Positions 8,353 through 28,655 of a stretch of DNA of 64,000 nt are shown here, in pieces (positions within the stretch are counted from its first letter, which is position 1; every line of letters starts with the position of its first letter). The notes under the pieces are model-generated. The model was not told where the DNA came from, did no database searches, and worked only from the letters and a program-made list of their open reading frames with translations. This DNA is from Candidatus Latescibacterota bacterium (lineage in GTDB: Bacteria > Latescibacterota > UBA2968 > GCA-2709665), in contig OZ244744.1 of NCBI GenBank assembly GCA_965219455.1, positions 2,272,001 to 2,336,000 on the forward strand, read 5' to 3'. Both the position numbers and the translations under genes were made by a program.

Positions 8353-9669
8353 ATGTCGATACTCACGTGTCTGTTTCTCTTCGTAGTGGTCCTTCACTTC
8401 ACCAGAACACGTGCGGCTGCCGCCGAAATCACACTCGCAGCCGGCGCGGCAAGAACCGACATCACACCCGATCCCGCGATGACAAACTGGGTGGATGGCA
8501 AACCCTATGACGGCGTGCTGGATCCGCTCACTCTGCGCGGTCTCGTTCTTTCCGACGGTAACACCGAGTTCGCTTTGATCTGCTGGGATCTCATCGACGC
8601 GACGGAGGAATGTGTCATCGACGTCCGCAGGGCGGTTCGCGGCGCAACAGGCATCCCGGAAACGCACATCCTCGTGGCCGCCTCGCACACCCACTCGTCG
8701 CCCCGGTCCCCATTTGCGGGATCCACGTTTCCCGGCCGCGGGAGCGAACGCCTGAGAGCCATTCTGGGCGATCCCGTCTTCCAGGCCTGGGGCCGGCGTC
8801 TCCCCGGACGATGCGCGGATGTCCTGAAACGAGCGCAGGATCGCCAGCAACCCGTCACCTTGAACATCGGCCGCGCGAATGTCTCGGAATGGTTATTCAA
8901 TCGGCGGCCCCTCGATCCCGATGGCAACGTCGTTACGATGTTTCAACCCAGAGATCCGCACACGTTGCCTGACGGACTGCGTTTCGGCTCGCTGGATCCC
9001 ACCCTGACCGTCCTCACCCTGAAAAACGCAGACAACACCAACGTGGCCACTGTCTACAGCGCGCCATGCCATCCCGTCTCCATCTATCCCTACCACCGCG
9101 GCGTTTCGGCGGACTGGCCCGGGCTCGCCAATGAGCGGATTTCCGAAGTCCTGGGAGGCGAATCCTTTTTTTTGCAGGGTTGCGCCGGAGACATCGTCCC
9201 CGCCACCCGAGGGGAAGAAGCGCGCACGGAAATGGCCCGTTTCTTCGCGGAACGGGCCGTCGCGGCCGCACGGAGTTCCCACCGCCTGCCGTCGTCGCCT
9301 CTGAAGGTCGCAACCGGGGTTGTCGGCCTGCCGCTCGTATCCGAAAAGCGAAAAGAGGCCGGCGCCGACATCCGACCGGTCGAAATTCAGGTGGTTGTTT
9401 GCGGACCCTTCGGCCTGGCCGTGCTGCCCGGCGAACCCCTCAACGGACTCGCACGTGAGATTCAGGCGCGTTCACCCCTCCCGCACACGCTTGCCATCGG
9501 CTATGCCAATGGTCGCGGGGTGAGTTACGTAGGCCTTCCCGGAGAAAAAGCCAGAGGCGGATACGAAGCGGGCGCCGGCCAGGGTACCGAAGAAGCCGGC
9601 GACTTTATGATTCAGACCGCCCTTCGGCTTCTGGCGGTTTCTGAGAGTCAAAAAAAGCCAGCATCATGA
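8353..9669 (+). CDS. Neutral/alkaline ceramidase-like amidohydrolase with signal peptide
   Basis: SHTHSSP, CHP, ADWPG, PGEP and GGYE motifs; hydrophobic N-terminus with AAA cleavage site. Confidence 0.82.
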   Translation: MSILTCLFLFVVVLHFTRTRAAAAEITLAAGAARTDITPDPAMTNWVDGKPYDGVLDPLTLRGLVLSDGNTEFALICWDLIDATEECVIDVRRAVRGATGIPETHILVAASHTHSSPRSPFAGSTFPGRGSERLRAILGDPVFQAWGRRLPGRCADVLKRAQDRQQPVTLNIGRANVSEWLFNRRPLDPDGNVVTMFQPRDPHTLPDGLRFGSLDPTLTVLTLKNADNTNVATVYSAPCHPVSIYPYHRGVSADWPGLANERISEVLGGESFFLQGCAGDIVPATRGEEARTEMARFFAERAVAAARSSHRLPSSPLKVATGVVGLPLVSEKRKEAGADIRPVEIQVVVCGPFGLAVLPGEPLNGLAREIQARSPLPHTLAIGYANGRGVSYVGLPGEKARGGYEAGAGQGTEEAGDFMIQTALRLLAVSESQKKPAS

Positions 9670-10611
9670 CCCCGAGATGGCGTCGATCATCTCCATCGTC
9701 TTCACCGCGTCGTCCAGACTACAGGCCGGGAACGGAAGTGCGCCTCCATTCCGGACCCATCTCAAGAACGTGCGATCCTGCTGATAAAATCCTGGTTTGT
9801 AGCGGCGATCAATGTCATTCCCTTCGACGTTCTCCGGCTGTCCGCCCCTGCGTCTCAAGGTTGCGGCTTGCCCAAGAGCGGACGTGAAGGTAACCCCATT
9901 GCCGCGCACTTCCACGCGGTGCCCTCCCGGAGCGAACCAGTCCATAGAGGCACGCCCGACAGCCCCGCCTGTGAAGGTCAACAGCGCCGAACAGCAGTCC
10001 GGCATGGGACCTTCCACAGTATGGTGCATCGGCTGGACGCTCACCACGTCACCGCCGAAGAATCGCAACAGGTCCAAGGCGTGGATGCCGTTTGCTACGC
10101 TCCAGCGTTCCAGGACCTTTTCAGGAAATTTCGGGTTTTCCCGGACCCGCTGGATATCTTCGTGGGCGTCCACAGTGACGCTTTGTACCGGCCCGGATTC
10201 GAGGATCAGCTCCCTGCCCTTGAGAAGCGTGGAATAGAACCGCCGATTTACGCCCACCATCGCCGGCGTACCCACCGCTCGCGCCAGATCGGCCAGCGCA
10301 CGGGTCTGGCACGTATAGAGGCCAGGAGGCTTTTCCAGAAAGGTCGGGATACCGGACCGAATGAAGTCTGCGGCGACCGCAGCGACCTGGAGGACACTCA
10401 CGAGAACGAAAACGGCGTCGGGCCGATCCCCTTCCAGCAGGCTCTCGTGCAAGTTCAGGCGATTCGACACGCCGAACCGCGCTCCTGTCTCTTCCAGAAC
10501 GCGGGGGTTGCTGTCCACAAGCGTCGTCACACACCCCTCGCGAAGGTCGGTGAGTACTTTCAGGTGCCTCTGGGCTATGTTTCCGGCTCCAACTACCGCA
10601 ATGTTCAGCAT
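9664..10611 (-). CDS. Gfo/Idh/MocA family oxidoreductase
   Basis: MLNIAVVGAGNIA Rossmann motif, EKPPG, NRRF, GIHALDLL. Confidence 0.9.
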   Translation of the reverse strand: MLNIAVVGAGNIAQRHLKVLTDLREGCVTTLVDSNPRVLEETGARFGVSNRLNLHESLLEGDRPDAVFVLVSVLQVAAVAADFIRSGIPTFLEKPPGLYTCQTRALADLARAVGTPAMVGVNRRFYSTLLKGRELILESGPVQSVTVDAHEDIQRVRENPKFPEKVLERWSVANGIHALDLLRFFGGDVVSVQPMHHTVEGPMPDCCSALLTFTGGAVGRASMDWFAPGGHRVEVRGNGVTFTSALGQAATLRRRGGQPENVEGNDIDRRYKPGFYQQDRTFLRWVRNGGALPFPACSLDDAVKTMEMIDAISGS

Positions 10612-10743
10612 TTCGTCCTTTTTCCTATAAAAAAAGCCGCCGATGCCGACGATAACGGTGACCACTGCGAAGATAAGCAGTCCGATGAGGAGCACGGCGC
10701 CCGCACAATGGCTTGTCGAGCTATTGAGGAAGCGTGTCTGAAG

Positions 10744-10768
10744 GTGGGGCAGACATTCCTGTCTGCCC
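10744..10768. repeat. REP-like short palindrome GGGCAGACATTCCTGTCTGCCC
   Basis: Perfect hairpin in intergenic DNA; inverted related copy near 38667-38691. Confidence 0.6.
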
Positions 10769-10903
10769 TTCTCATCGTCCGTCTGTCGCAATGCAGACAG
10801 AAAAACGGCTTGCACCGCCTTTATGGAGCCAATAGCCCTGGCGGCTCTTGCGTTACCACAATAAAGCGACTTGAGTAAGGAAACGACCGTATGGGTTATT
10901 CGC

Positions 10904-11521
10904 TTACGGCCAGGTGGGGCGTTCCATCGAAAAAGATTCGGTGACGCAGGCGTAGTCCAGATACCCGAGACGCCCCACGGGTTTCAGGGCCACGGTGTCG
11001 ACAAGGCCATCTCTTATAGCCCGATCGGCAATGTGGATGCCAATCACCTGACCGAATACAACCGTGTTCGGATCGTCCGGATCGTCGGTGGGAAGGTCCA
11101 CGGTCCGGGTATGGATACACTCCAGGTGGACCGGGCTTTCCGCCACACGGGGAGGTTTTACAAGTATAGAAGGCGCCTGGGTGACACCCGCGTATTCGAA
11201 CTCGTTGACGTTTCCAGGCGCGGGTACCGCGGTCGCGTTCATCTGTGTCCGAAGCTCCCAGGTAACGAGGTTTACCACGAATTCGCCGGTTTCCTGCGCA
11301 TTCTTTATGGAATCCTTCAACCCGCCGTGGGTGTGTGTGGTTGTAGCGGCGAACATGACCTGCGGCGGGGTATAGGCCACCGCGTTGAAAAACGAGTACG
11401 GGGCCAGGTTGACCGCACCCTGCGCGTCTATCGACGAAATCCATCCGATCGGTCGCGGCACAACGATGGCGTTAAAGGGATCGCGACGCAGGCCGTGGTG
11501 TTCGGTCGTCCTGTAAAACAT
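10904..11521 (-). CDS. Flavin reductase family protein
   Basis: VVPRPIGWISS..NLAPYSFFN, KDS..N, GRLGY motifs. Confidence 0.92.
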   Translation of the reverse strand: MFYRTTEHHGLRRDPFNAIVVPRPIGWISSIDAQGAVNLAPYSFFNAVAYTPPQVMFAATTTHTHGGLKDSIKNAQETGEFVVNLVTWELRTQMNATAVPAPGNVNEFEYAGVTQAPSILVKPPRVAESPVHLECIHTRTVDLPTDDPDDPNTVVFGQVIGIHIADRAIRDGLVDTVALKPVGRLGYLDYACVTESFSMERPTWP

Positions 11522-11570: not shown

Positions 11571-12572
11571 CTACTTCCACTTGAACACAACACCCAGCGC
11601 GGCGCTCGGATCATCTGCGAGCATGGTGTAGATTTCCTGGCACCGTTCCGGCTCCGCCACGTGGGTGACGAGGTCATCGACGGGTAATTTGCCCTCTCCC
11701 ATCAGGCGCATCACCAGCCGGCGGTCCCGTTCCTTTGCCCATCGGTAGTAGATGTGATCGGCCTCCGGCGTTTTGGGCTGGTGGGCGCCCAGGATGCTGA
11801 CTTCCCTCAGATGCACGTCGGCCAGGAAATCCATGTCGACGGTGCCTCGCGGGGAACCCAGCGCGACCACCCGGCCTGCCGAACAAGCAATCCGGACGGC
11901 GGTGGGATATACCGCGGGTTTGCCAGTCGCTTCGATAACGACGTTGGCGCCGTCTTCCACGCAGTGTCGGCCAACCGCCTCCCGGACGTCGTCCACGGCG
12001 ACGGGATTGATGCAGAGGCCGATGCCGCGGCTTTGCGCCTTGTCCAGACGAAAGTCGTCGAGATCGATAGCGATTACCGGCAGGGCGCCGGAGAGTCCCG
12101 CGAGCGTCGACGCGAGTTGGCCGACAATCCCCAGGCCGATGACGACGACAACCTCACCCAATTCGATGCGCGCCACCCGGATTCCATGGATGGCGATGGC
12201 GCCCATGACCATAAAGGCGGCGGCTTCGGACGACACGGTATCCGGGACCTTCTGGTGGAAGGACCTGCCGCCGTAGAGTATGGAGTGGCTGGCGTGGTTT
12301 CCCTGTCCGGCTATGCGATCGCCGGGGCGGATGCCTTCAACGTCCTTGCCGACTTCCAGGGCCGTTCCGACGTTGCAATAGCCGGTGGGGCGCGGAAAAC
12401 GAACGGGGTTTCCGGGTTCGCCTCCGTGGGTCCAGCCGTGGATCTCGGTGCCGACGCTGACGGCGGTGTACTGGTTTTCGATAAGGATACCGTCATCCGG
12501 TACTGGCCCCGTTTCGAAGGACGCCAATTCCATCCGACGGATACCGGGAATGAGAAAACGTGTGGCTTTCAT
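11571..12572 (-). CDS. MDR (zinc-binding-like) dehydrogenase
   Basis: SVGTE, PTGYCNVG, GLGIVG, IEATG; classical Zn ligands absent. Confidence 0.88.
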   Translation of the reverse strand: MKATRFLIPGIRRMELASFETGPVPDDGILIENQYTAVSVGTEIHGWTHGGEPGNPVRFPRPTGYCNVGTALEVGKDVEGIRPGDRIAGQGNHASHSILYGGRSFHQKVPDTVSSEAAAFMVMGAIAIHGIRVARIELGEVVVVIGLGIVGQLASTLAGLSGALPVIAIDLDDFRLDKAQSRGIGLCINPVAVDDVREAVGRHCVEDGANVVIEATGKPAVYPTAVRIACSAGRVVALGSPRGTVDMDFLADVHLREVSILGAHQPKTPEADHIYYRWAKERDRRLVMRLMGEGKLPVDDLVTHVAEPERCQEIYTMLADDPSAALGVVFKWK

Positions 12573-12584
12573 CGTGAAGTCCTT

Positions 12585-12749
12585 TAGCAGTCCGTTGAAA
12601 AAGTCGCTCTGCAGGCGAGGCCGAGTCATTGTGGCCGAAGACAAGGCGCGCGACCGCGTCGAATCGGGGATTCGGGGAGGGAGCGCAACGCAGTAATTCG
12701 GCCACAAGGGCCGGACGCAGCCCGGATGGACTTTTTCTCCGGGCTGTTA
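12585..12749. mobile_element. MITE-like ~165-bp element with terminal inverted repeats (copy 1)
   Basis: Ends TAGCAGTCCGTTGAAAAAG ... CTTTTTCTCCGGGCTGTTA; internal IR TTGTGGCCGAA/TTCGGCCACAA; near-identical inverted copy at 57391-57556. Confidence 0.85.
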
Positions 12750-12805: not shown

Positions 12806-13843
12806 CTACGCCTGCCCGCGGTCCAGGGTCTCCCGGAAGAGTCGAAGGAAGTTGCCGCCCCAGATCTTCCGGATTTCGTTCTCTGAGAGACCACGACTGA
12901 GCATGGCGCGGGTGAGGCGCACAAGCTTTGAGACGTCTCCAAAAACAGGTGTGCGCGAACCCATGCCGTCGTAATCGGAACCGATGGCGACGTGGTCGAT
13001 ACCGACCAGGTCGGCCACGTAACAGATGTGGTCGACCATTCGGTCCACGGAAGAATTCTCCGGATCGATAAAGCCTGGCAGAAAGGCGATGCCCATCACC
13101 CCACCGGAGGCGGCCAGCGCCCTGAGTTGATCGTCGGTGAGGCAGCGCCAGTGGTTGCAGACGGAAAAAACCGCGGTGTGGGTCATCGTTACCGGGAGGG
13201 AAGACAGTTCCAGAACCTGGTAGAAAGCTTTGTCATTAATATGGGCCAGGTCGGTGATGATGCCCAGCCGGTTACTTTCCTCGAGCACGGCCTTGCCGAA
13301 GTCCGTCAGACCGATGGCGTTCCTGCGTTCACGTTCACGGTCGTCCGGCGTGCATGGGCCGAAAGGACTCTTGCTGCCCTGAAGGTAGGCCCCGGCGTCC
13401 CCGCCTTCGCCGTGGGTGATCCCCACGCAGCGTACGCCCAGGCGGTAGTAGAGACGAAGAATATCCATCTCCCCTTCCAGCCAACGTCCCGCGCCTTCGA
13501 TTGTAAGCAGGATGCCGATTTTGCCGGATGCTCTCGCACGTTCAACGTCCTGTGGCGAGAACACCAGCATCAGGTCCTCGGGATACCGCTCCACCGAGGC
13601 CAGGGTCTGTTCCAGGGTTACACGAACGTTTGCCGTCGGACCGTTGCCGACCACGAAAAAGCCGGCATCGAATCCGCCTTCCCTCATCCGGGGAATGTCC
13701 ATGTGATACGCGGGATCCCGTTTTTTCAGGTCCATCGGGCGCTCGCCGCGGTGCACGCGCTCCACGGGCGTGTCGTTGTGGCCGTCGACGATTAGGCAGC
13801 GGTCGTGGACTGCCTGCGCTTCTTCAAGGGTAATGTCCGGCAT
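12806..13843 (-). CDS. Membrane dipeptidase family (M19) protein
   Basis: DGHND, IEG, DLAH, MTHT, R.LTDDQ and IGSDYDG motifs. Confidence 0.92.
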   Translation of the reverse strand: MPDITLEEAQAVHDRCLIVDGHNDTPVERVHRGERPMDLKKRDPAYHMDIPRMREGGFDAGFFVVGNGPTANVRVTLEQTLASVERYPEDLMLVFSPQDVERARASGKIGILLTIEGAGRWLEGEMDILRLYYRLGVRCVGITHGEGGDAGAYLQGSKSPFGPCTPDDRERERRNAIGLTDFGKAVLEESNRLGIITDLAHINDKAFYQVLELSSLPVTMTHTAVFSVCNHWRCLTDDQLRALAASGGVMGIAFLPGFIDPENSSVDRMVDHICYVADLVGIDHVAIGSDYDGMGSRTPVFGDVSKLVRLTRAMLSRGLSENEIRKIWGGNFLRLFRETLDRGQA

Positions 13844-13912: not shown

Positions 13913-15235
13913 CTACGGCGGGTCGACCGGTACTTTCTGGTTCTTGCGGACCAGGGGATCGTATGTAAATCCGTCGGACCGTTTTTCGAACTCGGCGCGT
14001 ACCTTTTTCATGTTCTCCGGGCTCCGGCAGAGGTCGACCGCGGTTCCGGCGAAAACCTTGGCGGTCTGCCGGATCGAGCGCTCGGCGAAAGGCAGCGCGG
14101 CCTGCGCGGCCATGTCCCGGTGATGGCCAGGCGTTCCCTTTGCATAACAGACCATCTGGAAGCGTCCCAGAGGGGCCAGCCAGGAAACGTTGTCTTCGTC
14201 GGTGGAGCCCCGGCCCTGGGAACCGCTGCCCTTGGCTATCTTCGTGTTGAACCCCTTTTTGTAGCCGAGGGCTTCGGCGCGCTTCGTGTCGGCTTCCGTC
14301 GGTTCGGGCGGCCCGAAGAGTTTCAGGTTTTTTCGAACAATCTCACACATTGACTTGTTGGGCAGACGCGGGTACACGGCAGTGATACGCGACCATTTCA
14401 TCTTCGTGTCCGTGGCTTTGGCGGCGCCCCGGGCGCAGGCGGTGAGGCGTTCACGCACTTCGTCTACCTGCGCGCGGTCCTTGCCCCGTACGAAGTACCA
14501 GATCTTGGCATAGGCCGGCACCACGTTGGGGGCATCGCCTCCATTGCGAATGACGGAATGAATCCTGACGTTTTCGGGAACATGCTCCCGGAGGTAGTTG
14601 GCGGCAATATCCGTGAGCATCACCCCGTCCAGGGCGCTGCGGCCCCGGTGAGCCCACGCGCCGTGGGCGGTGCGGCCGAAGAACTCGTAAACGAGGGAGT
14701 CCAGCGACGATCCGCCAAAATTGTTGACGCCGGAAGAATTCCCCGGATGCCAGGCGAGGCAGGCGTCCAGGTCCCGAAACCCGCCGTCGCGAGCCATATA
14801 CACTTTGCCGGCCAGGGTTTCCTCGGCCGGACAGCCGTAGTAGACGATTGTGCCCGATGTTCCGGTTGATTCGAGGATTTTTGCAGCGGCGACCGCACCC
14901 ACGGCCGGGGCAACGCCCAGCAGGTTGTGGCCTCAGCCATGCCCCCAGTCACCTTCCTCGGGACCGCAGTTCGGCAGCGCGTCGTATTCCCCCAGCATCC
15001 CGACCGCCGGTTCTCCGTTGCCCCGGGTCGCGCGAAATGCCGTGGGGATTTTCTTGAAAGAGAATTCGACTTCGAAGCCGTGCGAAGCCAGGTAGTCCGC
15101 GACCGCTCCCGAGGATTCGACCTCCCGGAAGGGCCGTTCCGCCCAGGCGTGCACCCGCCTGGAAAGGTTCCTGGCGCGTTTCGACTCGTCCGCTACGGTG
15201 CGATCGATGAAGTCCTTTTTATCTTGCGAGGTCAT
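13913..15235 (-). CDS. M20D amidohydrolase (AbgB-like), 440 aa, read through in-frame UGA at codon 101 (candidate selenocysteine)
   Basis: ORFs 14933..15268 and 13913..14902 share one frame; LGEYDALP..GHG*GHNLLG matches GHGCGHNLLG; CPAEE, WHP, AHG, GGDAPNVVP and GSTD intact. Confidence 0.85.
14896..14935 (-). promoter_or_regulatory. UGA plus SECIS-like hairpin
   Basis: UGA GGCCACAACCU GCUGGGC-GUU-GCCCCGGC: stem with a G-first apical loop starting 19 nt after UGA. Confidence 0.55.
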
Positions 15236-15342
15236 GACATATCCCTTCTGTAAAAAACGCCGGCCCACGGTTAATGGAATTGCCGCGTTGGATCGTCAAC
15301 GGTTCCGGATCGATCTTCGCCCCGAGTTTTCGAGCGACAAGT

Positions 15343-16431
15343 CTATGGTTTGACGATGGCATCAACGACCGCGTCGCCCACCTCCGGAGTCGCAGCTTCC
15401 CCGCCCAGGTCCGCCGGATGGTTTGCCGGATGGACAAGCGTTCGATCGACGGCGCGGTCAATTGTCTGTGAGGCGGCGGCGGCTTCCGGATCGTTATGGC
15501 GGCTGCCCAGCCAGGACAGCATCATCCCCGCGGAGAGGATCTGGGCTATGGGGTTGGCGATGCCCTTCCCGGCTATATCGGGGGCGGTACCGTGGGAAGG
15601 CTGGAAGACGCCGTAACGATCGCTGACGTCGGCCGAGGGCGCCATACCCATCCCGCCGATAGTAGCTGCGGCCAGGTCCGAAATGATGTCCCCGAACATA
15701 TTTTCTGCAACGACAACGTCGTACCACGCGGGGTTGCGTAACTGGTACACGGTGAAGGCGTCCACGTAGGCATAATCCCGCTCGACGTCGGGATAGGATT
15801 CTGCCACCTCGTCGTAGATCTGCCTGAAAAAGGCCATGCTTTTCAGAATGTTGGCCTTGTCCACCGAGGTGACGCGGCTTTTCCCGTCGGCGGGCGCCCC
15901 CTCCCGTTGTTTTGCGATTTCAAAGGCGTACCGTACAATCCGCTCGGTACCGGCCCGGGTGATAACCATGTTGTCCACGGCGAGGCTGTCGCCGAGAAGA
16001 ACCCCGGCGCCCCTGGAGGCGTAAAGGCCTTCGGTATTCTCGCGCATAATGACGTAGTCGAGCGGCGGATTCCCCTCCAGAAGCGGAGGCACGCCACGAT
16101 ATTTCTTGATGGGCCGGATCCCGGCGTAAAGGTCGAGTTCGAAGCGCAATGTCAGCTGCGGTGCGATTTCCGTGCCATCCGGAAACCGTATATCCGGGTC
16201 GCCCGCGGAACCGAAAAGGACGGCATCGGACTGTTTGCAGGCGTTGAGCGTGGGCTCGGGCAGGTCATTGCCGGTTTCGGCGTAACACCTGGCGCCCACC
16301 GGGTACTCAGAAAAGGTGAATCGGAGATCGGGATGCGGCTCCTCGAGCGCGAGAAGTACTTTGAGCGCTTCCGCGACTACTTCCGGGCCGACGCCGTCTC
16401 CAGGGAGTACGGCAATGTTGTACGTTGGCAT
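15343..16431 (-). CDS. Isocitrate/isopropylmalate dehydrogenase family protein
   Basis: LPGDGVGPEV, RENTEGLY, VDKANIL, ENMFGDIISD, HGTAPDIAGKGIANP. Confidence 0.93.
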   Translation of the reverse strand: MPTYNIAVLPGDGVGPEVVAEALKVLLALEEPHPDLRFTFSEYPVGARCYAETGNDLPEPTLNACKQSDAVLFGSAGDPDIRFPDGTEIAPQLTLRFELDLYAGIRPIKKYRGVPPLLEGNPPLDYVIMRENTEGLYASRGAGVLLGDSLAVDNMVITRAGTERIVRYAFEIAKQREGAPADGKSRVTSVDKANILKSMAFFRQIYDEVAESYPDVERDYAYVDAFTVYQLRNPAWYDVVVAENMFGDIISDLAAATIGGMGMAPSADVSDRYGVFQPSHGTAPDIAGKGIANPIAQILSAGMMLSWLGSRHNDPEAAAASQTIDRAVDRTLVHPANHPADLGGEAATPEVGDAVVDAIVKP

Positions 16432-16527: not shown

Positions 16528-17691
16528 TCAGCGGCGGCGCCGGGAACGCTGGCGATCATGGATGCCGATTCGGAATCCGCCCTCGGATCCCACGCCGCGT
16601 TCCAGCATATCCGGTTCGACGTCGAATCCCGCGCCGGGCGTTTCGGGTACGATCAGTCTGCCGTCTTGCATCCGCCACCCGTCCAGGACGATGCCGGGCA
16701 TATCGGCGGGCGCCGCTTCCAGGAGGCTGAAGTTGGGAATGGAGGCGGCGAAGTGGGCGTGTGCGTAGCGTTCGATGATACTCCCCCAGCAATGGGGCGC
16801 ACACTTCGCGCCCCAGGGTTGGATACGGTCTGCGGTGGCTTTCCACCAGGTCAGACCCTTGAAGCGAAAGTCGTGCTGCACGATGTCTATCCATCCCTCT
16901 TCGACCATATCGAAGAAGTGGGGTGGAGGCGGCCCGGATTCACCGTCGGCCACGAGCGTGTTGCAGCCTCTCCGGACGATCGCTTCTTTAAAAGCCTGGT
17001 TGAACGCCCGATCTTCAGGAAACGGCTCCTCAAACCAATAGACGCCCACGTCCCGGCAGCGATCGAGTATGTCCAAAGCGATATTGAGCGTGGTTCCGTT
17101 GTTGGCGTCAACGAGGATTTTCCCGTCCCGTCCCGCGGCTTCGCGAACCGCGTGGATCACCAGCACGTCCCTGTCCGTTCCTTCCCGGACAGGCATCCAG
17201 CGCGCGCCGCGGCCGATTTTGATTTTGAAATTGCGATAGCCGTGTTTGTGACCGGTCCGGACCTCTTCGTGAAATATATGCTGCGCCTGATCGTCGGTAG
17301 TACCCAGATCGTCGATGTAGATGGAGCCGTCATAAAGTTCCACTTCGCGGGAACCACGCGCTCCCAGGAGTTTATAAAGAGGCACCCCTTCACATCTGGC
17401 GGCCAGATCCCACAGGGGCAGATCAATGGCTGCGCCGGCCCCTTTCGACCCCCGGGGAAGTTCGAAGAGGTCCGCGGGTCCCATTCCTAGCAGCGTTTCC
17501 GCGCGCTCCTTGTCGAGGGTCGACCAGCCGATGCCGACAGCGCCACCCTCGGTGCAGATGCGCACGACCGGGTCCGTAACGACCTGGCCATGGGTGCCGA
17601 TGCGGGCGTTTGATCCGATGATACGCGGACGCCTTCCGCGGACGATAACCTTTTCGATCTTGACGATGGGATCGGAGAAAGTACAGGGCAT
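16528..17691 (-). CDS. Mandelate racemase/muconate lactonizing (enolase superfamily) enzyme
   Basis: DLPLWDL, KIKIG, VDAN, WFEEP, ADGE, PH, PETPGAG. Confidence 0.88.
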   Translation of the reverse strand: MPCTFSDPIVKIEKVIVRGRRPRIIGSNARIGTHGQVVTDPVVRICTEGGAVGIGWSTLDKERAETLLGMGPADLFELPRGSKGAGAAIDLPLWDLAARCEGVPLYKLLGARGSREVELYDGSIYIDDLGTTDDQAQHIFHEEVRTGHKHGYRNFKIKIGRGARWMPVREGTDRDVLVIHAVREAAGRDGKILVDANNGTTLNIALDILDRCRDVGVYWFEEPFPEDRAFNQAFKEAIVRRGCNTLVADGESGPPPPHFFDMVEEGWIDIVQHDFRFKGLTWWKATADRIQPWGAKCAPHCWGSIIERYAHAHFAASIPNFSLLEAAPADMPGIVLDGWRMQDGRLIVPETPGAGFDVEPDMLERGVGSEGGFRIGIHDRQRSRRRR

Positions 17692-18076: not shown

Positions 18077-21000
18077 TTGCATCTTTCCCGACTGACGGTA
18101 TTGGGCTTCAAATCCTTCGTACAACAACTGGATCTTTCGCTTCAGAAGGGCATTACCTGCGTGGTGGGACCCAACGGCTGTGGCAAATCCAACGTCGTGG
18201 ACGCGCTGCGCTGGGCGCTGGGCGAGCAGCGGGTCAGGTCGCTGCGCAGCAACGATATGGAAGATGTGATTTTTTCAGGCACGCGAAACCGGAAGCCGCT
18301 CGGGATGGCCGAGGTGTCGATCACCATTGCCAATGAAGAACGGATTCTGCCGGTCGACTATACCGAAGTGACCGTTACCCGCCGTCTGTTTCGATCCGGA
18401 GACAGCGACTACCTGCTGAACAGGGTCCCCTGCCGGTTGAAGGATATTCAGAATCTGCTGATGGATACCGGCCTGGGTGCACACGCGTATTCCGTAATTG
18501 AGCAGGGGATGATGGATGAAATCATCAGCGACAAACCCGAAGAAAGGCGGCGGCTGTTCGAAAAGGCCGCCGGCGTCACCCGGTATAAGGTACAACGGCG
18601 GGCGGCGTGGAACCGTCTGGAGTCTGTGCAGCGGGATCTGGTGACCGTAGACGCTGTTATGGGTCAAATCGAGCGCCAGGTGAACACGCTCGCCCGGCAG
18701 GAGCGGAAGGCGCGGCTCTACAGACAGCTATCAGATCAGATGAAGGACCTCGAGGTACGGCTCGGTCGCTACCGGTTCTTTTATATGTCCGAAAGATCCC
18801 GTCCGGTTGCGGATGAGATGGCCTTTCTCAAAGAGGACGTGGAGGTGGCCTCAGGAGATATCGCCCGCGTGGAGGCCCGGCTCGAGGAGGTTCGAACGGA
18901 ACTGGCTGAACGGGATCATGCACTGGCGGAAGCCAACGCGGAAGTGAGCAGCCAGAGTAAACTGGTACACTTGAAGCAGACAGATATTGCGGTAGCGCAG
19001 GAGAAAATCCGATCGATCGACGCCTTCCTGAAGCATGCGGACCGGCGACAGGAGGAACTCGCCGGGCGGCGGGATGCGGCAAGGGAGGAAGCGGCGGCGA
19101 CGGCGCGGCGCGGGACCCAGGCACAAGAGGCATTGCAACGCGCGGAAGGCGCATTGGATAAGGAGCGTACCGCACTGGAAGCGACGAACCGGGCGCTCGA
19201 CGCACGGCGAACCCGCGCCGACGAACACCAGTCTCAACTGATAAGCGCCCTGGGTGAAATCAATGAAGGGAACGGCCGGCTGGAAGGCGGACGGGCCAGG
19301 CTGGAGGGAATTGCGCATCGCCAGGCCCGCCTCGAAGCCGATGCCAGGCAGGTGGCTCTCCGCAAACAGGAGGCCGATGCTGCCGGAGGGGAGGCCGCGC
19401 GGCAGGTTGAAAGTCTGAGTCGGGATGCGTCCGAACACAGCAGGTTGCGGGAGGCGCACGCGGCGGAACATGGCCGCCTGCAGGCCGAACTGGAAGGGAT
19501 GATGGAAAGGCGTAGCCGGCTGCTGGCGCAACTGGAGGCCGATGGAGCGCGGGTCGGCCTTCTGAAGAAGCTTCGGGAAGGATTCGAAGGGTATTCGAGC
19601 GGCGTACGCGCGCTGGCGGTCGATTCACCCTTTGTGGATAAGGTGCGCGGCGTGGTTGCGGACCGGATTGAAGTGGACGTGCGGTACGCAAGCGCCATTG
19701 AAGCGGCCCTCGGACGCGCGCTGGAATGTCTGCTGGTGGACGAACCCGCCGTCGCGGTGACGGCTATGGACTACCTGCGATCGGGCGACCGGGGATCGGC
19801 GGCGTTTCTCCCGCTGGATTCCCCTTCCAACGGCAACGGCGTCTCCTGGACGCCGCCCGATGGCGAAGGCGTGGCGGGTAGGGCGTCGGATCTCTTGCGC
19901 GGCGAGGAATCTCCGGTTCACGCACTGCTTCACCGCACGCTAGTGGTCGACAACGCCGACAACGCGATTGCGCTGCTGGAAAAAATGCGGCCTCTGGGCG
20001 TGGATCTGGTTACCGAGACGGGCGAACTGTTCTCGGCCGACGGCACGATATACGGCGGAGAGAAGACCGACGGCGGCACCGGACTGATCGGACGCAGACA
20101 GGAGATCGAAACGCTGGAAGCGAATCTGAGCGCGGCCGGCGCCGAACTGGAAGCGCTGGATGCGGCAATCGAGGACGCCGCCGCGTCGCTCGTCGAATTG
20201 CAGACCCGGATCGACAAAAAGGACCGTATTCTGGCGGACCTGAACAGTCGTTTGGCCGAACATCGGCGGGATCTTCAGATCGCGCAGGCCGAAGAACAGC
20301 GACAGTTGAGGGTCGAAGTGGAATTACGCGATGAAATTACAGCGTTGATGACCGACGAGACCGAACTGAGAGAATCGATCGCTTCCGAGGAAGCGGAATT
20401 GAACGTACTTAACGAACGACGCGAGCAACTGATGGCCGCCGCCCGCGACGTGGACATGGCGCTGCGGGAGCGGGAACAGCAGCGGGGAGCGGAGCAGGAC
20501 ACGGTTTCGAAACGGCAGATCGAGATCGCTTCATTGAAAGCCAGCGTGGACCGGCACGGAGACGAAGCGCAGAGATGGGCTCGGGACCGGGCCGACACGG
20601 AGCGGGAAATGAAACGACTGGCCGCCGAGTGCGAGGAACGGCAGAAAGAAAAGATCGACCTTGAGAAGTCCGCTCAGGCTGCCGCGAAGGAACTGGAGAA
20701 ACTGCATCGCAGGCAGGACGAACTGGAGGCAACGCGGGACAGGCAGGCGGAGCGCCAGCAGGCGTTGTTGACGGATATCCGGCAGTTGGAAGAGGAAGCG
20801 CGGGACAAGAACCGGCGCGCGAATCAGAACCGGGATCGATTGGGCGAGTTGCAGGGTGAGATGGCGGAGTTGAAAACGGGAGCCGAAACGTTACGGGATC
20901 GAATTCTGCGCGAATACGAGGTGGATGTCAGAGAGACGGGCGCATTGGACGATCCGGAATTCAATGAAGACGTGGCTGAAAAGCGCGCAGACGAGCTTCG

Positions 21001-21673
21001 CGATCGGCTCCGGCGGATGGGTTCAGTAAACCTGGCCGCCGTGGAAGAGTATGAGGACCAGAAACACCAATACGAGTTTATGGCCAAACACAGGAGCGAT
21101 CTGTCGGAGGCGGCGGAAACCCTCCAGCGAACCATATCCCGGATCGACCGGACCGCCCGCGGCCGTTTTATGGTTACCTTCGATCAGATCAGGGAGAATT
21201 TCCGGAAGACGTTCGAGGCGTTTTTCGAAGGTGGCCAGGCGGATCTCCTGATGCCAGCGGATCAGGACCCGCTGGAGGCGCCGCTGGAGATTATCGCACG
21301 GCCGCGGGGCAAACAGCTGCGGCATATCAACCTGCTTTCCGGCGGAGAACGTGCGCTGACCGCGATTGCACTGCTATTCGCGATTTACCTCGCCAAGCCG
21401 AGCCCGTTCTGTATTCTTGACGAAGTCGATGCCCCTCTGGACGATGCCAACGTCGCCCGTTTCGTGCGGGTGCTCAAACGGTTCGCGGCTGACACCCAGT
21501 TTATCGTGGTTACCCACAACAAGGTCACGATGGCTGCGGCGGACTGCCTGCACGGTATTACAATGGAAGAGCCGGGGGTGTCCAGGCTGGTATCGGTCAG
21601 GCTTGATTACGAAGCACACGGCGGTAACGGACAGGCGGAGGCGATGGCGGAAACCACGGCCGCGGATGATTGA
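18077..21673 (+). CDS. smc: Chromosome segregation protein SMC
   Basis: GFKSF, VGPNGCGKSN Walker A, long coiled coils with hinge, LSGGE, LDEVDAPLD, VTH. Confidence 0.97.
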   Translation: MHLSRLTVLGFKSFVQQLDLSLQKGITCVVGPNGCGKSNVVDALRWALGEQRVRSLRSNDMEDVIFSGTRNRKPLGMAEVSITIANEERILPVDYTEVTVTRRLFRSGDSDYLLNRVPCRLKDIQNLLMDTGLGAHAYSVIEQGMMDEIISDKPEERRRLFEKAAGVTRYKVQRRAAWNRLESVQRDLVTVDAVMGQIERQVNTLARQERKARLYRQLSDQMKDLEVRLGRYRFFYMSERSRPVADEMAFLKEDVEVASGDIARVEARLEEVRTELAERDHALAEANAEVSSQSKLVHLKQTDIAVAQEKIRSIDAFLKHADRRQEELAGRRDAAREEAAATARRGTQAQEALQRAEGALDKERTALEATNRALDARRTRADEHQSQLISALGEINEGNGRLEGGRARLEGIAHRQARLEADARQVALRKQEADAAGGEAARQVESLSRDASEHSRLREAHAAEHGRLQAELEGMMERRSRLLAQLEADGARVGLLKKLREGFEGYSSGVRALAVDSPFVDKVRGVVADRIEVDVRYASAIEAALGRALECLLVDEPAVAVTAMDYLRSGDRGSAAFLPLDSPSNGNGVSWTPPDGEGVAGRASDLLRGEESPVHALLHRTLVVDNADNAIALLEKMRPLGVDLVTETGELFSADGTIYGGEKTDGGTGLIGRRQEIETLEANLSAAGAELEALDAAIEDAAASLVELQTRIDKKDRILADLNSRLAEHRRDLQIAQAEEQRQLRVEVELRDEITALMTDETELRESIASEEAELNVLNERREQLMAAARDVDMALREREQQRGAEQDTVSKRQIEIASLKASVDRHGDEAQRWARDRADTEREMKRLAAECEERQKEKIDLEKSAQAAAKELEKLHRRQDELEATRDRQAERQQALLTDIRQLEEEARDKNRRANQNRDRLGELQGEMAELKTGAETLRDRILREYEVDVRETGALDDPEFNEDVAEKRADELRDRLRRMGSVNLAAVEEYEDQKHQYEFMAKHRSDLSEAAETLQRTISRIDRTARGRFMVTFDQIRENFRKTFEAFFEGGQADLLMPADQDPLEAPLEIIARPRGKQLRHINLLSGGERALTAIALLFAIYLAKPSPFCILDEVDAPLDDANVARFVRVLKRFAADTQFIVVTHNKVTMAAADCLHGITMEEPGVSRLVSVRLDYEAHGGNGQAEAMAETTAADD

Positions 21674-21849: not shown

Positions 21850-23922
21850 TTAAACGGATCCCAGGCTTTTCAGGATCTTCGCGACAACGGCATCCGTATC
21901 GCGCACTCCGGACAGCCGCTCGACGATGATTCCCTGCGGATCCACAAGGAAATATGCGGGTATGGCCCGCACGTTGTAGGCGCTGGTCGCGCCGGAACCC
22001 CAGACCCCCGAGCGCACGTGGACACCTTTGATCCCATGTTTATCGATGGCCTTGCGCCACGCGGCGTCGCTCGAATCCAGTGAAAGGTTGACGAAGACCA
22101 CCGGTAAATCGGTGGTCTTCTTCTTTAATTCCCGGATGTACGGCAGATTGCCGATGCAGGGCCCGCACCAACTCGCCCAGAAATCCAGCAACACGACCTT
22201 GCCCCTGAACTGGCTGAGGGATACCTGCTGCCCTCCCTGGTCCGACAGCGTAAAGTCGGGCGCGGGACGGCCCGGCCGCAGCGCCATGGCCCTGTCCAGG
22301 GCCGCCTTGACAGCCGTGTCGTATTCGGGATACGGATTCGACGCCTGGAAATCCAGCCACTTGCGGCGGACCTGCGCAAAGCCTTCACCGCCATAATCAA
22401 AACCTCGAATCAGTTCTCCGGCGAGGAACCAGTAGAGCACTCTCCCCTTCAGTCTTTCACTAGCCAGATCGAACCGCCTGGTCTGCGAGGAATAAATCGT
22501 TCGTCTTTTTATTTCATAAATCGAATCGAGCGTTGCCTGCACCGGCTGCGTCAGTCCCAGGCCGGCGAGGTCCAGCTTGTCCGACAAACTGAGCGGCCGA
22601 CGGTTTTCGTACAGTGAGTCCAGTTGCGCACCGATCTCAGGCGATACATCCAGCCCCGACAGATCCACCATTTCGGCCAACCTCTGTTTCTTATGGATCG
22701 ACCGCAACTGTTCACTGACCTCCGCGCCGTCTTCTTTGGGCAGCCGGAAAACCAGCGCACCGCCAGTCGTATCGATTTCGGGTTTTTTCAGCTTGCTTGA
22801 AGTAGAGATCCTGTACGATCTGCCACTCTTTTCGAAGAAAGAGTCGAGCTGTGCCCGGGCCGTTTCCGGTACACCCAATTTCGACAGATCGATCACGTCG
22901 GATAGCGTGGACTTCCTCCTGTTGTCATACATCGAGTCCAGCCTGGCCTCGACCGATTGGGACAGCTCCAACCCGGACAGGTCGATCATTTTGGACAGCT
23001 TCGGGTGCCCCCCGTACCGCGCATAGAGAGAGTCGAGGCGGGCGAGCGTATCATCAGGTAGATCCAGGCTTGTCAGATCGTACAGGTCGGACAGCGTGGT
23101 CGACCCGGGCATCTTCATCATTTCCAAATCCAGTGTCCGAACAAGGTAGGTTGGATACGGATCCACACCGATCGCCTTCTCGTCCACCAGCGGGACCTGT
23201 TTGAGAAAGTCGTAAAATTCAGGTGGTATATTTCGGTTCTCACGGCCCGTGGCGAATCGGTAATTGGTAGGGTATGAAATCATCAAGAATGCGTACGTGT
23301 AGTTGAAAAAACGTTTCGCATACTCGATGAATTTCGGCGAGAACGCATATCTCGTGCGCCGCCTGTCCAGATATTTCAACTGATCCGCGCGCCACCCGTC
23401 CACCATGCGAGTAAAATCATCCGCCTCCATTTCCCGGGAGTCCCTGATTTTCCCCTGGAACGCCTGAAATCGTGGGAACCACTCAGCGATGAACCGGCTG
23501 TTGTCCGCGTTTTGACCACTGAACCGGAGGGAGGTGTAGAGATGACCGGGATGGACAGAAATATGTAGGCTGTCTCCGGGTTCGACGTAGAAAATCAGCG
23601 GACTGGGTTTCAAGAGGAACGCCACCGCCTGCCGCACCGGCTTCCACGGGACGCCCCTGCCCTTGTAGCTTCCCCGTACGAGGGTACCGCGTACGACGGG
23701 AATCTCGAGGGTGAAGCGGTTCCGGCTGTCCAGAACCACGCGCTGCTCGGAATTTCTTCCCAGCGCCGACGGAGGGTCGTAACTGAACGTGATCTCCCGC
23801 GAGGTCGGATTCCTGACTTCGCCGGTGATGATCGCCACCGATGGCTCGCCGCTTTCTGAAGCAAAACAGACGGTCGACATAACGAGTATGGCAACCAGGA
23901 CACTACCGCATATGTTTTTCAT
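21850..23922 (-). CDS. Secreted TlpA-like thiol-disulfide redoxin with internal tandem repeats (paralogue 1)
   Basis: Signal peptide; C-terminal APDFTL..GKVVLLDFWASWCGPC..IPAYFLVD; five ~31-aa repeats. Confidence 0.88.
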   Translation of the reverse strand: MKNICGSVLVAILVMSTVCFASESGEPSVAIITGEVRNPTSREITFSYDPPSALGRNSEQRVVLDSRNRFTLEIPVVRGTLVRGSYKGRGVPWKPVRQAVAFLLKPSPLIFYVEPGDSLHISVHPGHLYTSLRFSGQNADNSRFIAEWFPRFQAFQGKIRDSREMEADDFTRMVDGWRADQLKYLDRRRTRYAFSPKFIEYAKRFFNYTYAFLMISYPTNYRFATGRENRNIPPEFYDFLKQVPLVDEKAIGVDPYPTYLVRTLDLEMMKMPGSTTLSDLYDLTSLDLPDDTLARLDSLYARYGGHPKLSKMIDLSGLELSQSVEARLDSMYDNRRKSTLSDVIDLSKLGVPETARAQLDSFFEKSGRSYRISTSSKLKKPEIDTTGGALVFRLPKEDGAEVSEQLRSIHKKQRLAEMVDLSGLDVSPEIGAQLDSLYENRRPLSLSDKLDLAGLGLTQPVQATLDSIYEIKRRTIYSSQTRRFDLASERLKGRVLYWFLAGELIRGFDYGGEGFAQVRRKWLDFQASNPYPEYDTAVKAALDRAMALRPGRPAPDFTLSDQGGQQVSLSQFRGKVVLLDFWASWCGPCIGNLPYIRELKKKTTDLPVVFVNLSLDSSDAAWRKAIDKHGIKGVHVRSGVWGSGATSAYNVRAIPAYFLVDPQGIIVERLSGVRDTDAVVAKILKSLGSV

Positions 23923-24122
23923 AAAGAGATTCCTCCCTAAGTTCACGTTCCGCTTCACAGGCAACTCAAAAACCATCCGAACCCTGAGTCACGGCTTGCC
24001 CCGGACGGATGTCACAAATCTCAAGCACTTGCAATAGGCACGACGCCCGAGCGTCGCTTTTATGAGATATCGCCTTTCTCGTCCGGTCATTGCAATAATT
24101 GAGCGCCAATGGACAAGATCAA

Positions 24123-26576: not shown

Positions 26577-28655
26577 TTAGACGGATCCGAGGCATTTCGT
26601 TATTTTTTCCAAAATCGCATCGGTATCCGTCATCAACTCGATCTGGGACAGTCGCTCCAGAATTCGCCCTTGCGGATCCACCAGAAAATAGGCCGGTATA
26701 CCACGTACGTTGTAGGCCCGGGGTGTGCCGCTGTTGGAGTCGCCTGTTCGCACGTGCACCCCTTCGATCCCGTGTTTTTCGATGGCCTTCCGCCATGCGG
26801 CGTCGCTGGAATCCAGTGAAAGATTCACGAAAACCACCGGTAGTTCGGCCATTTTTTTCTTTATTTTTCTGAGATAGGGCAAGTTACCGATGCATGGCCC
26901 GCACCAGCTCGCCCAGAAATCCAGCAGCACCACCTTGCCCCTGAACTGGCTCAGCGACACGGGTTGACCGTCCAGGTCCGTCAACGTGAAATCCGGCGCC
27001 GGACGCCCCGGTTGCAGCGCCATCGCCTTGTCCAGGGCCGCCAGGACAGCCGCGTTGTATTCCGCATATGGGTTGATCGCCTTGAAATCCTGCCATTTGC
27101 GAGTCGCCAACGCAAACGCATCGCCGTCGGCCCTGAAGCCATCGATCAGCTCGTCTGCGAGAAACCAGTACAGGACCCTACCGGACAATTTCCTCTTGGC
27201 CAGATCGTACCTTTTCGCAAAGAGATAACCACGGGCGCCGCTACTATTGGCATAAATCGAGTCCAGGCGTGTCCGTGAGGCATCGGTTACATTCAAATTC
27301 GACAGATCGACCTTCTCTGATAACCTGAGCGGCTGGCGATGTACATATAGGGAGTCCAATTGAGCTTGGACCGGTGGCGAAAGACCCAGGCTCGACAGGT
27401 CAACCTTTTCGGACAATCCTGGCGTCCTTTTGAAGGAGTCTATCTGTTCACTAGCCGTCCCCTCTTTCATTGGCAGGTACAATTCGACCGCCCCACTCGT
27501 CGTATCCAGCTCAGGTTCGCTGATTTTGTTAGACGTAGTGATGCGTAAGCCACGACCAGCCTTCGCATAGAATGAGTCAATCCTTCCGTGGTCCGCCGGC
27601 GCCACGCCCATCTTCCCCAGATCGTACCTTTTGGAAAGCCTGAGCCTTGCCCGGTTTTTGTACATCGAGTCCAGCCGTGCCTGATTCGCTGGCGAGAGAA
27701 CAGCCTGAGAGAAATCAACCATTTGTGACAGAAGGGGCTTTCGCCCCGTCTGTTCGTACAGAGAGTCGAGCCGGGCCAGGGTTTTCTCTGACAGACCCAA
27801 CCCCGATAGATCGTACACATCGGACAACCTGAGCGGTTTGGGGTCCTTACTTAATTCCCATCCGAGTGTCCGCACCAGGAACGTGCGGTAGTTCCCTACG
27901 CCAATGGCGTCTTCATTTGCGAGAGGGATTTCCCCTAGAAAGTCATAGTACTCTGGAGGGATTTCCTTGTTTTCGTATCCGTTAACGAGTGAGAACTGTG
28001 TCGGGTAGGAAATCATAAGACGTCCCCACCCGTATTTGAAGTAAATCTTCGCATAGTCGATGAACGCAGGCGACAACGCGTATTTCTCGCGTGCTTCAGC
28101 CAGAAGTTCGGACTGGTCCCGACGCCACTCTGCTATTTTTCTGGAAAAGTCCTCCACCTTGAGATCCTTGTAGTCCAGATCCCGTTGGAACCTGCGAAAT
28201 CGTGGGATCCACCCGGACATGAAGCGGCTGTTGTCAGCATTCTGGCCGCTGAACCGCAGGGAGGAGGAGAAATAGCCTGGTTCGATGACAACGTGCAGGC
28301 TGTCTCCGGGTTCAATGAAAAGGGTTATGGGACCGGGAGGTCCAAGGGCGTAGAATACGATCCACCCCAACCATTTCCAAGTCGGTCTTCTGGTTGGATA
28401 ACGGCAGACAACATAGTTCGCACTTGAAAGAGGTATGGTGATTGCAAAGCAATTTTGGCTATCGAGGACCACGCGCTGCTCGGAGCTTCTTCCCAGAGCG
28501 AGAGGAGACTGGAAGTTGAACGTGATTTCCCGCGAGGTCGGATCCCTTACTTCGCCGGTGATAGTCGCGACTGACGGCTCGCCGCTTTCCGCGGCAAAGC
28601 CGGCAGCTGACACGGTGAGTATGGCAGCCAGAATGAGAAAACACGTGCTCTTCAT
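26577..28655 (-). CDS. Secreted TlpA-like thiol-disulfide redoxin with internal tandem repeats (paralogue 2)
   Basis: Co-linear with 21850..23922; signal peptide; DFWASWCGPC. Confidence 0.9.
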   Translation of the reverse strand: MKSTCFLILAAILTVSAAGFAAESGEPSVATITGEVRDPTSREITFNFQSPLALGRSSEQRVVLDSQNCFAITIPLSSANYVVCRYPTRRPTWKWLGWIVFYALGPPGPITLFIEPGDSLHVVIEPGYFSSSLRFSGQNADNSRFMSGWIPRFRRFQRDLDYKDLKVEDFSRKIAEWRRDQSELLAEAREKYALSPAFIDYAKIYFKYGWGRLMISYPTQFSLVNGYENKEIPPEYYDFLGEIPLANEDAIGVGNYRTFLVRTLGWELSKDPKPLRLSDVYDLSGLGLSEKTLARLDSLYEQTGRKPLLSQMVDFSQAVLSPANQARLDSMYKNRARLRLSKRYDLGKMGVAPADHGRIDSFYAKAGRGLRITTSNKISEPELDTTSGAVELYLPMKEGTASEQIDSFKRTPGLSEKVDLSSLGLSPPVQAQLDSLYVHRQPLRLSEKVDLSNLNVTDASRTRLDSIYANSSGARGYLFAKRYDLAKRKLSGRVLYWFLADELIDGFRADGDAFALATRKWQDFKAINPYAEYNAAVLAALDKAMALQPGRPAPDFTLTDLDGQPVSLSQFRGKVVLLDFWASWCGPCIGNLPYLRKIKKKMAELPVVFVNLSLDSSDAAWRKAIEKHGIEGVHVRTGDSNSGTPRAYNVRGIPAYFLVDPQGRILERLSQIELMTDTDAILEKITKCLGSV

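Follow-up and report, generated by a model that had tools for sequence, protein, structure and literature searches.

A conserved in-frame UGA, predicted to encode selenocysteine, in an M20D amidohydrolase gene of Latescibacterota

Locus and protein family

The window is the whole stretch of DNA analysed here, 64,000 nt of the forward strand of contig OZ244744.1 (positions 2,272,001 to 2,336,000; assembly GCA_965219455.1) of a Candidatus Latescibacterota bacterium, whose genome is closed at 5.84 Mb. The gene in question lies on the minus strand, encodes an amidohydrolase of peptidase family M20, subfamily D (M20D), and is interrupted by one UGA codon that very probably stands for selenocysteine (Sec). 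Positions 13913-15235 (-) form a single frame of 440 codons, from ATG at 15235 to TAG at 13915-13913, and codon 101 is the lone in-frame TGA (14935-14933, -), in the local context GGG CAT GGC TGA GGC CAC AAC CTG, or G-H-G-*-G-H-N-L. Neither a second stop nor a frameshift was found when this frame was inspected. The listing of open reading frames (ORFs) splits the gene into 14933..15268 (-) and 13913..14902 (-), both in the same frame. An earlier note, made from the letters of the window, had joined the two called ORFs into one frame with UGA at codon 101 of 440 and had seen no other lesion; its coordinates and codon number are correct, and the present reading of the sequence agrees that the UGA is the only interruption. 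The two features are as follows.

13913..15235, minus strand: M20D (TIGR01891, HmrA/PM20D2-like) amidohydrolase gene, 440 codons plus TAG with one UGA; assigned from the translation, Pfam, TIGR01891, an AlphaFold2 model, Foldseek and the ratio of nonsynonymous to synonymous rates (dN/dS).
14933..14935, minus strand: UGA codon 101, predicted selenocysteine in place of the Cys of H-x-C-G-H; the column is conserved and aligns to the Cys of HACGH.

The predicted read-through product was matched by PF01546 (Peptidase_M20; 26.6 against a cut-off of 24.6), by PF07687 (M20_dimer; 30.4 against 21) and by NCBIfam TIGR01891 (188.1 bits against a curated cut-off of 153.75); no selenoprotein-specific model was among its NCBIfam matches. 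An AlphaFold2 model built with 26 homologues has a mean predicted local distance difference test score of 89.8 and shows catalytic and dimerisation domains as in HmrA, and Foldseek aligned the model to HmrA (3RAM) with a template modelling (TM) score of 0.81 query-normalised and 0.91 target-normalised. By these matches the predicted product is a member of M20D. E138/E139, H163 and H371 are invariant in the 26 homologues and H372 is nearly so, and the PAEE, HPG and C-terminal GH columns align with HmrA; the remaining metal ligands are presumably among these Glu and His residues. Each column of the motif has its counterpart in HACGH(N/D) of 3RAM, 7YH4, 1XMB and 6SLF, where residue 101 stands opposite the Cys. 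Compared with HmrA, the clade of this protein has a 7-residue insert (NCGPEEG) ahead of the motif.

For dN/dS, distant pairs were set aside as saturated (dS = -1) or misaligned (L137, with an N-terminal indel), and closer pairs were used. Across 11 moderately diverged pairs the ratio was 0.06-0.62 over codons 1-100 and 0.05-0.20 over codons 102-440. Purifying selection acts on both sides of the UGA.

Conservation of the UGA codon

The phylum was sampled with 168 Latescibacterota species genomes, with E<=1e-120 as the cut-off for an orthologue. An orthologue was found in 56 of them, and 55 of the 56 carry exactly one TGA, at an identical column in all 55 sequences fetched; the 56th (genome G059) has TGC. 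The Sec forms range from 100% down to 68% protein identity to the window protein and fall into three family-level groups, f1 (the family of the window), f2 and f3. Across the 55 orthologues the interrupting stop is always TGA and never TAA or TAG, and no TGA-bearing copy has a second lesion. The UGA is thus not private to this assembly; a private UGA with Cys in all relatives is what the earlier note had said would speak against selenocysteine.

Among genome contigs, the best 80 of 598 confirmed loci have TGA at the motif in 8 (all close relatives) and TGC or TGT in 65, with 7 in which the motif was unmatched by the pattern. Among metagenome contigs, the best 80 of 574 confirmed loci comprise 4 with TGA, 54 with Cys codons and 22 unmatched by the pattern. 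With the TGA at one and the same column in the 55 orthologues, in these 4 loci and in all 8 close genome loci, chance is excluded. Both scans cover the best 80 of at least 600 (genome) and at least 589 (metagenome) stretches, and Sec forms may exist beyond Latescibacterota. The 120 best database homologues include 100 with Cys in the motif (up to 76% identity), 4 full-length proteins unmatched by the pattern, and 16 fragments of 294-336 residues that begin just past the UGA position. The alternation of UGA and Cys at this column, which the earlier note had proposed to look for among relatives, is therefore seen in the phylum, genome, metagenome and database sets alike.

The TGA form occurs together with selA. 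Among the 168 genomes, 131 gave a selA match; 54 of the 55 genomes with the TGA form are among these, and the one that is not, G032, is 91% complete and in 430 contigs. No selA match was obtained in G059, the Cys-form genome (86% complete), nor in G055 (90% complete), which belongs to the same genus (g14). A TGC form in a genome with no selA match is the pattern to be expected where losing the ability to decode Sec compels a switch from Sec to Cys. This genus may have lost the Sec trait and replaced Sec with Cys, as far as one lineage, incomplete genomes and a search for selA can indicate.

Contigs from two other studies span codon 101: X5, with 1 difference over 14314-15235, and X8, with 6 differences over 14403-15235. 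A contig from a metatranscriptome library (X15, 1106 nt) also spans it, with 39 differences over 14256-15235. Among the differences listed for these three assembled contigs (contigs, not reads), none lies at 14933-14935, where TGC or TGT would, according to the earlier note, have counted against the proposal. RNA run X16 gave nothing.

Two RNA runs labelled 'sponge metagenome' contain a small fraction of the sequence words; this is a basis for no habitat claim.

Selenocysteine machinery in the host genome

The earlier note had suggested a search of the genome for selA, selB, selC and selD, and all four are present, each above its curated cut-off. selA (562 bits) and selB (366.6 bits) are clustered with the tRNA-Sec gene at C1:4374106-4377628; the tRNA-Sec gene (73.6 bits; ARAGORN call SeC(tca)) lies directly downstream of the other two. 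selD (359.8 bits) has its own single in-frame TGA in a U-A-A-K (U-x-x-K) context. TGA ends 16 of the 42 stop-to-stop frames of at least 300 codons in the window, and neither selA nor selB has an internal TGA; TGA is therefore an ordinary stop codon in this organism.

Outside the window, at least six other genes of the genome have one in-frame TGA and are members of selenoprotein families already known. They are selD, an FdhA-like gene (CSRA*HAP), two AhpC/TSA genes and two Rdx/SelW-like genes (G000:C1, 5416997-5417731, 3107795-3108178, 219084-219359, 1254083-1254301, 3896537-3896749 and 3407174-3408097). A hairpin loop was predicted 19-25 nt past the UGA in five of these six genes; the AhpC gene at 219084 has no clear one. 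The loops are GGUC at +20 (selD), GGUCU at +21 (FdhA-like), AGUU at +19 (AhpC) and GUU at +25 (both Rdx).

RNA element downstream of the UGA

Codon entropy was calculated for the 55 genes at degenerate codons whose amino acid is conserved, in 8-codon windows (168 in the gene). Relative codon entropy is 0.063 over codons 107-114, the lowest of the 168 windows, against a gene mean of 0.726, and the ten lowest-entropy windows all begin at codons 102-111. GGC107, GCC109, GCC111 and GCG114 are invariant in 55/55, while codons 102-106 vary freely. Cys forms with the identical peptide LLGVAPAVGAV (L165, L171 and L173; n=3) use other codons at sites 107-114; the synonymous constraint thus tracks the UGA and not the protein. 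The features of this region, which would act as a selenocysteine insertion sequence (SECIS), are as follows.

14894..14917, minus strand: codons 107-114 with near-zero synonymous variation, core of the presumed SECIS (codon entropy).
14904..14921, minus strand: hairpin A, proposed in the earlier note, GCUGGGC-GUU-GCCC(C)GGC, with a GUU loop at +21..+23, counted from the U of UGA; the upper 4 bp are invariant in 50/50 distinct sequences.
14890..14907, minus strand: hairpin B, CGGCCGY-RGGU-GCGGUYG, with a 7-bp stem and the loop at +35..+38 (RNAalifold consensus).
14891..14932, minus strand: alternative long hairpin that starts 3 nt past the UGA and has the loop region of hairpin A at its apex (minimum free energy (MFE) fold, -20.1 kcal/mol).

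The earlier note had described a hairpin with a G-first loop 19 nt downstream. It was found again as hairpin A, in which the G of the GUU loop is the 19th base after the UGA. The extension of its stem through CCAC/GUGG, also proposed there, holds in f1 but fails where codon 112 is GCA, as in f2. Hairpin B shares bases with the lower stem of hairpin A and with the long hairpin, so at most one of them forms at a time. Pairs were counted on 57 sequences, 50 of them distinct. In the two-hairpin model (A and B), 99.8% of cells are paired, and one pair is G-C in 35 sequences, G-U in 11, A-U in 3, these three being double changes, and unpaired in 1. The two-hairpin and long-hairpin models are not told apart by covariation counts because the 3' strand is invariant.

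The RNA element just 3' of the UGA is under strong constraint, and three folds fit it: hairpin A, hairpin B and the long hairpin. The GUU loop of hairpin A at +21 resembles, in loop and distance, those of the two Rdx, the AhpC, the selD and the FdhA-like genes, and among the candidate folds it fits the genome's own set of loops best. The conservation of bases +32 to +43 needs hairpin B or the long stem, hairpin A being insufficient for it. The hairpin bound by SelB would be one of these predicted candidates.

Phylogeny of the Sec and Cys forms

A FastTree phylogeny of 122 rows holds 59 Sec forms and 63 Cys forms; the Sec column was masked as X, which is counted as a gap, and database proteins shorter than 430 residues and those from P0061 onward are omitted. 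All Sec forms fall in one clade of 72 rows (support 81, not starred), which also holds 13 interleaved Cys forms and lies nested within a set of clades that have Cys only. On this tree six changes of the Sec/Cys label are required, at least three of them forced by well-supported branches. Since all sampled Sec forms have the same 3' RNA element, one gain of Sec with several reversions to Cys is suggested. The pattern is compatible with one change from Cys to Sec within Latescibacterota and several later reversions to Cys, one of which would be in the genus lacking a selA match.

Interpretation and alternatives

The explanation favoured here, with high confidence, is that the gene holds a conserved UGA encoding Sec in an M20D amidohydrolase, at which selenium would be inserted. 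The gene would encode a full-length dinuclear metallo-amidohydrolase or dipeptidase of the HmrA/PM20D2 kind, and the SelA/SelB/tRNA-Sec system would decode UGA codon 101 as selenocysteine, directed by the RNA element within 45 nt 3' of the codon. Sec would then take the place of the Cys in the invariant H-x-C-G-H, which by homology is the thiolate bridging the two catalytic metals. Given this position, a selenolate would serve the enzyme as metal ligand in a site of hydrolysis, not of redox chemistry, and judged from the alignment the selenolate most probably sits where relatives have the metal-bridging thiolate.

Three other explanations were considered. The one that survives best, though improbable, is that the UGA is read through or recoded with no selenium involved, as Trp or Cys by a near-cognate tRNA, by Cys-tRNASec or through a lineage-wide reassignment of TGA, with the RNA element stimulating read-through. 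Sequence alone cannot name the inserted residue, and the RNA element lacks diagnostic covariation. Yet TGA is a normal stop in this genome and is absent from the interior of selA and selB, and it is precisely in this column that every Cys-form relative has its Cys, the classic mark of Sec/Cys alternation. The genome also has a complete Sec system together with other UGA genes of known families that have similar 3' hairpins, and the only orthologue in the phylum with a Cys codon (G059) belongs to the genus lacking a selA match.

It is less probable still, indeed very unlikely, that this is a true split gene in which the UGA ends translation, a further start downstream yields a second polypeptide, and both assemble into one enzyme. 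Conserved split genes exist, and potential restart codons are present in part of the set: GTG at codon 112 in f1 and TTG at codon 106 in about half of the sequences (28/55). However, codon 112 is GCA in 32/55 and codon 106 is CTG in 27/55, some sequences (e.g., L056) have no in-frame ATG, GTG or TTG within 20 codons past the UGA, and a split gene is unlikely because no restart codon is conserved there. The break would moreover fall inside H-x-C-G-H and remove its central residue, the stop is always TGA, and neither the link to selA nor the Cys form in a genome with no selA match would be expected of a split gene.

That the TGA arose by nonsense mutation or faulty assembly, the gene being a pseudogene or broken copy, can be practically dismissed: gene callers do split the gene, and public databases have only downstream fragments of it (294-336 residues; 16 of the 120 best homologues), but the TGA column is shared by 55 species genomes and 4 metagenome loci, none of the copies has a second lesion, dN/dS is well under 1 on either side of the UGA, independent assemblies have the same codon, a pseudogene adrift would not keep codons 107-114 fixed at their synonymous sites, and a shared systematic error is implausible across short-read and long-read assemblies from different studies.

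Several points weigh against decoding of the UGA as Sec by way of the described element, or against the role assigned to the residue. The ligand role of the Cys is drawn from the alignment and from one sentence of a review on a relative with 18-19% identity. The covariation of the two-hairpin model is not decisive, as 35 of 500 shuffles reach its score; in the long-hairpin model, where 93.1% of cells are paired, there are 8 one-sided changes and zero compensatory double changes. The MFE of the 50 nt past the UGA is no better than that of shuffles (z = +0.74; 150 of 200 fold at least as well). An Rfam scan of 14800-15000 gave no family match, the chance hits MEG3_2, SNORD48 and HgcG being far below their gathering scores. 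Each loop has an exception (GUU is ACA in L045, 1 of 55, and RGGU is GGGC in L030), and the hairpin B loop at +35 is farther away than the loops of the other Sec genes (+19 to +25). The support from the RNA library is a contig and no proof of transcription, and six difference rows for the spanning contigs lie outside the listing. Finally, the relatives are not independent, as the 55 carriers belong to three GTDB-style families of one class.

With these points taken into account, decoding of codon 101 as Sec is still favoured, and the protein is probably the founding member of a selenoprotein family of which no description was found, a dinuclear metallohydrolase of M20D with a selenolate in place of the bridging thiolate. 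Of the prokaryotic selenoproteins catalogued so far, nearly all are oxidoreductases of the thiol type or redox metalloenzymes. If the assignment is true, Sec-metal ligation extends from redox centres (Mo/W and Ni) to a Lewis-acid hydrolytic centre. The retention of Sec at the metal-bridging position in at least three families of the phylum would then mean that selection favours Sec over Cys for a non-redox reason. This could lie in how strongly or selectively the metal is bound, in an adjusted Lewis acidity, or in a ligand that better withstands irreversible oxidation. Naturally occurring Sec/Cys pairs, 70-76% identical, would be matched enzymes for a direct comparison.

Comparison with known enzymes

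HmrA of S. aureus (3RAM) is the nearest solved structure (phmmer E 4.8e-40, profile E 1.9e-56, query-normalised TM score (TMq) 0.81). It has Cys in HACGHN where the present protein has UGA, and the identity is only 26%. Human PM20D2 (7YH4 and 8ZEI; a beta-alanyl-lysine / Xaa-Arg dipeptidase) is the second-nearest solved relative, with E 1.8e-30, TMq 0.78 and the HACGHN motif; it differs in being a eukaryotic Cys enzyme that lacks selenium, at 24% identity. In CsAga (6SLF), the N-alpha-acyl-glutamine aminoacylase of Corynebacterium, HACGHD aligns with G-H-G-U-G-H-N, but the enzyme is distant (18-19% identity, TMq 0.70) and has Cys, not Sec. Further profile matches among solved structures are ILL2 (1XMB), CsAga (6SLF), 4EWT, YxeP (1YSJ) and the Abg protein 3IO1. 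JGI names homologues 'aminobenzoyl-glutamate utilization protein B', after AbgB, yet the match to the Klebsiella Abg protein 3IO1 is weak (E 6.6e-8). The same Cys is, we assume, a metal ligand in other solved M20D structures as well, and we know of no redox step in the dinuclear M20 hydrolase fold. According to a statement in the review noted above, the motif Cys bridges the two zinc ions in CsAga, and in M20A an Asp has the bridging role. As to substrates, HmrA is described in a passage of PMC9486568 as preferring Met-X dipeptides.

Sec as a direct metal ligand is described, in section 7 of PMC13188914, for formate dehydrogenase (Mo/W) and [NiFeSe] hydrogenase (Ni). Both also have Cys homologues, and both differ from the M20D protein as redox enzymes with redox-active metals. 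The same 2026 inventory, in its Table 1, lists computationally predicted Sec forms of hydrolase- or lyase-like folds, namely a UshA-like protein, an amidotransferase related to the C-terminal part of CTP synthase, and the MerB-like SaoL (PMC13188914). These three set a precedent for Sec outside thiol-oxidoreductases; they have other folds and motifs (CxU, GxUxG and CU), and none of them is an M20 protein or is known to have Sec bridging a dinuclear centre. YgeY, an M20 hydrolase, is tied by gene neighbourhood to selenium-dependent molybdenum hydroxylases, and a table of PMC2276186 places it next to selenium-cofactor genes, with no mark of Sec in YgeY itself. No selenium-cofactor genes were found among the ORFs scanned beside the Sec M20D gene.

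Novelty and annotation

The 2026 inventory covers 119 prokaryotic selenoprotein families and subfamilies, including those annotated in GenBank, and describes most of them, in its main text, as having thioredoxin-like folds or redox motifs (PMC13188914). Neither an M20 peptidase nor an amidohydrolase or aminoacylase is among the 119 families in Table 1 of that inventory. The main texts of PMC13188914, PMC12013277 (deep-Sep), PMC13326102 (BSepDB), PMC9312934 (a 2022 review) and PMC2398784 (the 2008 GOS survey) make no mention of M20, peptidase, amidohydrolase or hydrolase, and supplements and BSepDB itself may list the family. A full-text literature search found no report of a Sec M20D family. 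Enzymes with paired Sec and Cys forms are familiar, but a dinuclear hydrolase site with Sec is not.

NCBI names two of the downstream fragments 'peptidase dimerization domain-containing protein'. Public records systematically mis-call the Sec forms, either as two ORFs or as proteins truncated at the UGA. Selenoproteome surveys and annotation pipelines would gain a family model from the inclusion of these sequences. Fragment records (P0024, P0035, P0056, P0079 and others) are abundant in public metagenome protein sets, with clusters of 217 and 94 members.

Gene neighbourhood

The genes on either side of the Sec gene are listed below, in the order of their coordinates.

9664-10815, minus strand: GFO/IDH/MocA oxidoreductase (Pfam).
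10904-11521, minus strand: flavin reductase (Pfam).
11571..12707, minus strand: Zn-dependent alcohol-dehydrogenase-like gene (PF00107).
12806..13843, minus strand: M19 dipeptidase, immediately downstream of the Sec gene (PF01244, E 8.5e-84).
15343..16431, minus strand: isopropylmalate/tartrate dehydrogenase-like gene (Iso_dh), upstream of the Sec gene (PF00180, E 4.9e-92).
16528..17691, minus strand: enolase-superfamily (MR/MLE) gene (PF13378 and PF02746).

The M19 dipeptidase, the isopropylmalate-dehydrogenase-like enzyme and the enolase-superfamily enzyme that the earlier note had named as neighbours are confirmed by Pfam, all on the minus strand. The catabolic cluster that it proposed is only partly conserved: M19 adjoins M20D in f1 loci only. 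Iso_dh occurs in f1 and in a few f2 loci. The most widely kept neighbour is the Zn-dependent alcohol-dehydrogenase-like gene, which lies past M19 in f1 and directly beside M20D in f2 and is the only one present in both arrangements. None of the four tested neighbours was found in the ±1.5-kb flanks of f3 loci. NCBIfam gave no function above cut-off for the neighbours, the matches of Iso_dh all being below it. A pairing with an N-acyl-amino-acid racemase or dipeptide epimerase was considered for the MR/MLE gene and rejected, as its matches are weak, below cut-off and mostly to acid-sugar dehydratases; neither a substrate nor a pathway is proposed. Among nine neighbouring ORFs scanned by Pfam there was no second M20 protein, and no search aimed at abgA or abgT was made.

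A metagenome-assembled genome labelled Gemmatimonadota (locus L058) has a Sec-form gene 88% identical to that of the window, in the same order of Iso_dh, M20D, M19 and Zn-dependent alcohol dehydrogenase as in the genus of the window, which suggests a mislabelled bin or a foreign contig in the bin.

Farther from the Sec gene, two paralogous frames of about 710 residues, at 21850-23976 (-) and about 26661-27011 (-) (G000:C1:2298661-2299011), end in a redoxin/AhpC-TSA/thioredoxin-like domain; both lack an in-frame TGA, and at E<=1e-5 Pfam matches nothing in their long N-terminal parts. Between these frames and the neighbours listed above, a gene for an SMC protein (1198 residues, SMC_N and hinge) occupies 18077-21673 (+) and, on the opposite strand, ends the minus-strand run that holds the Sec gene.

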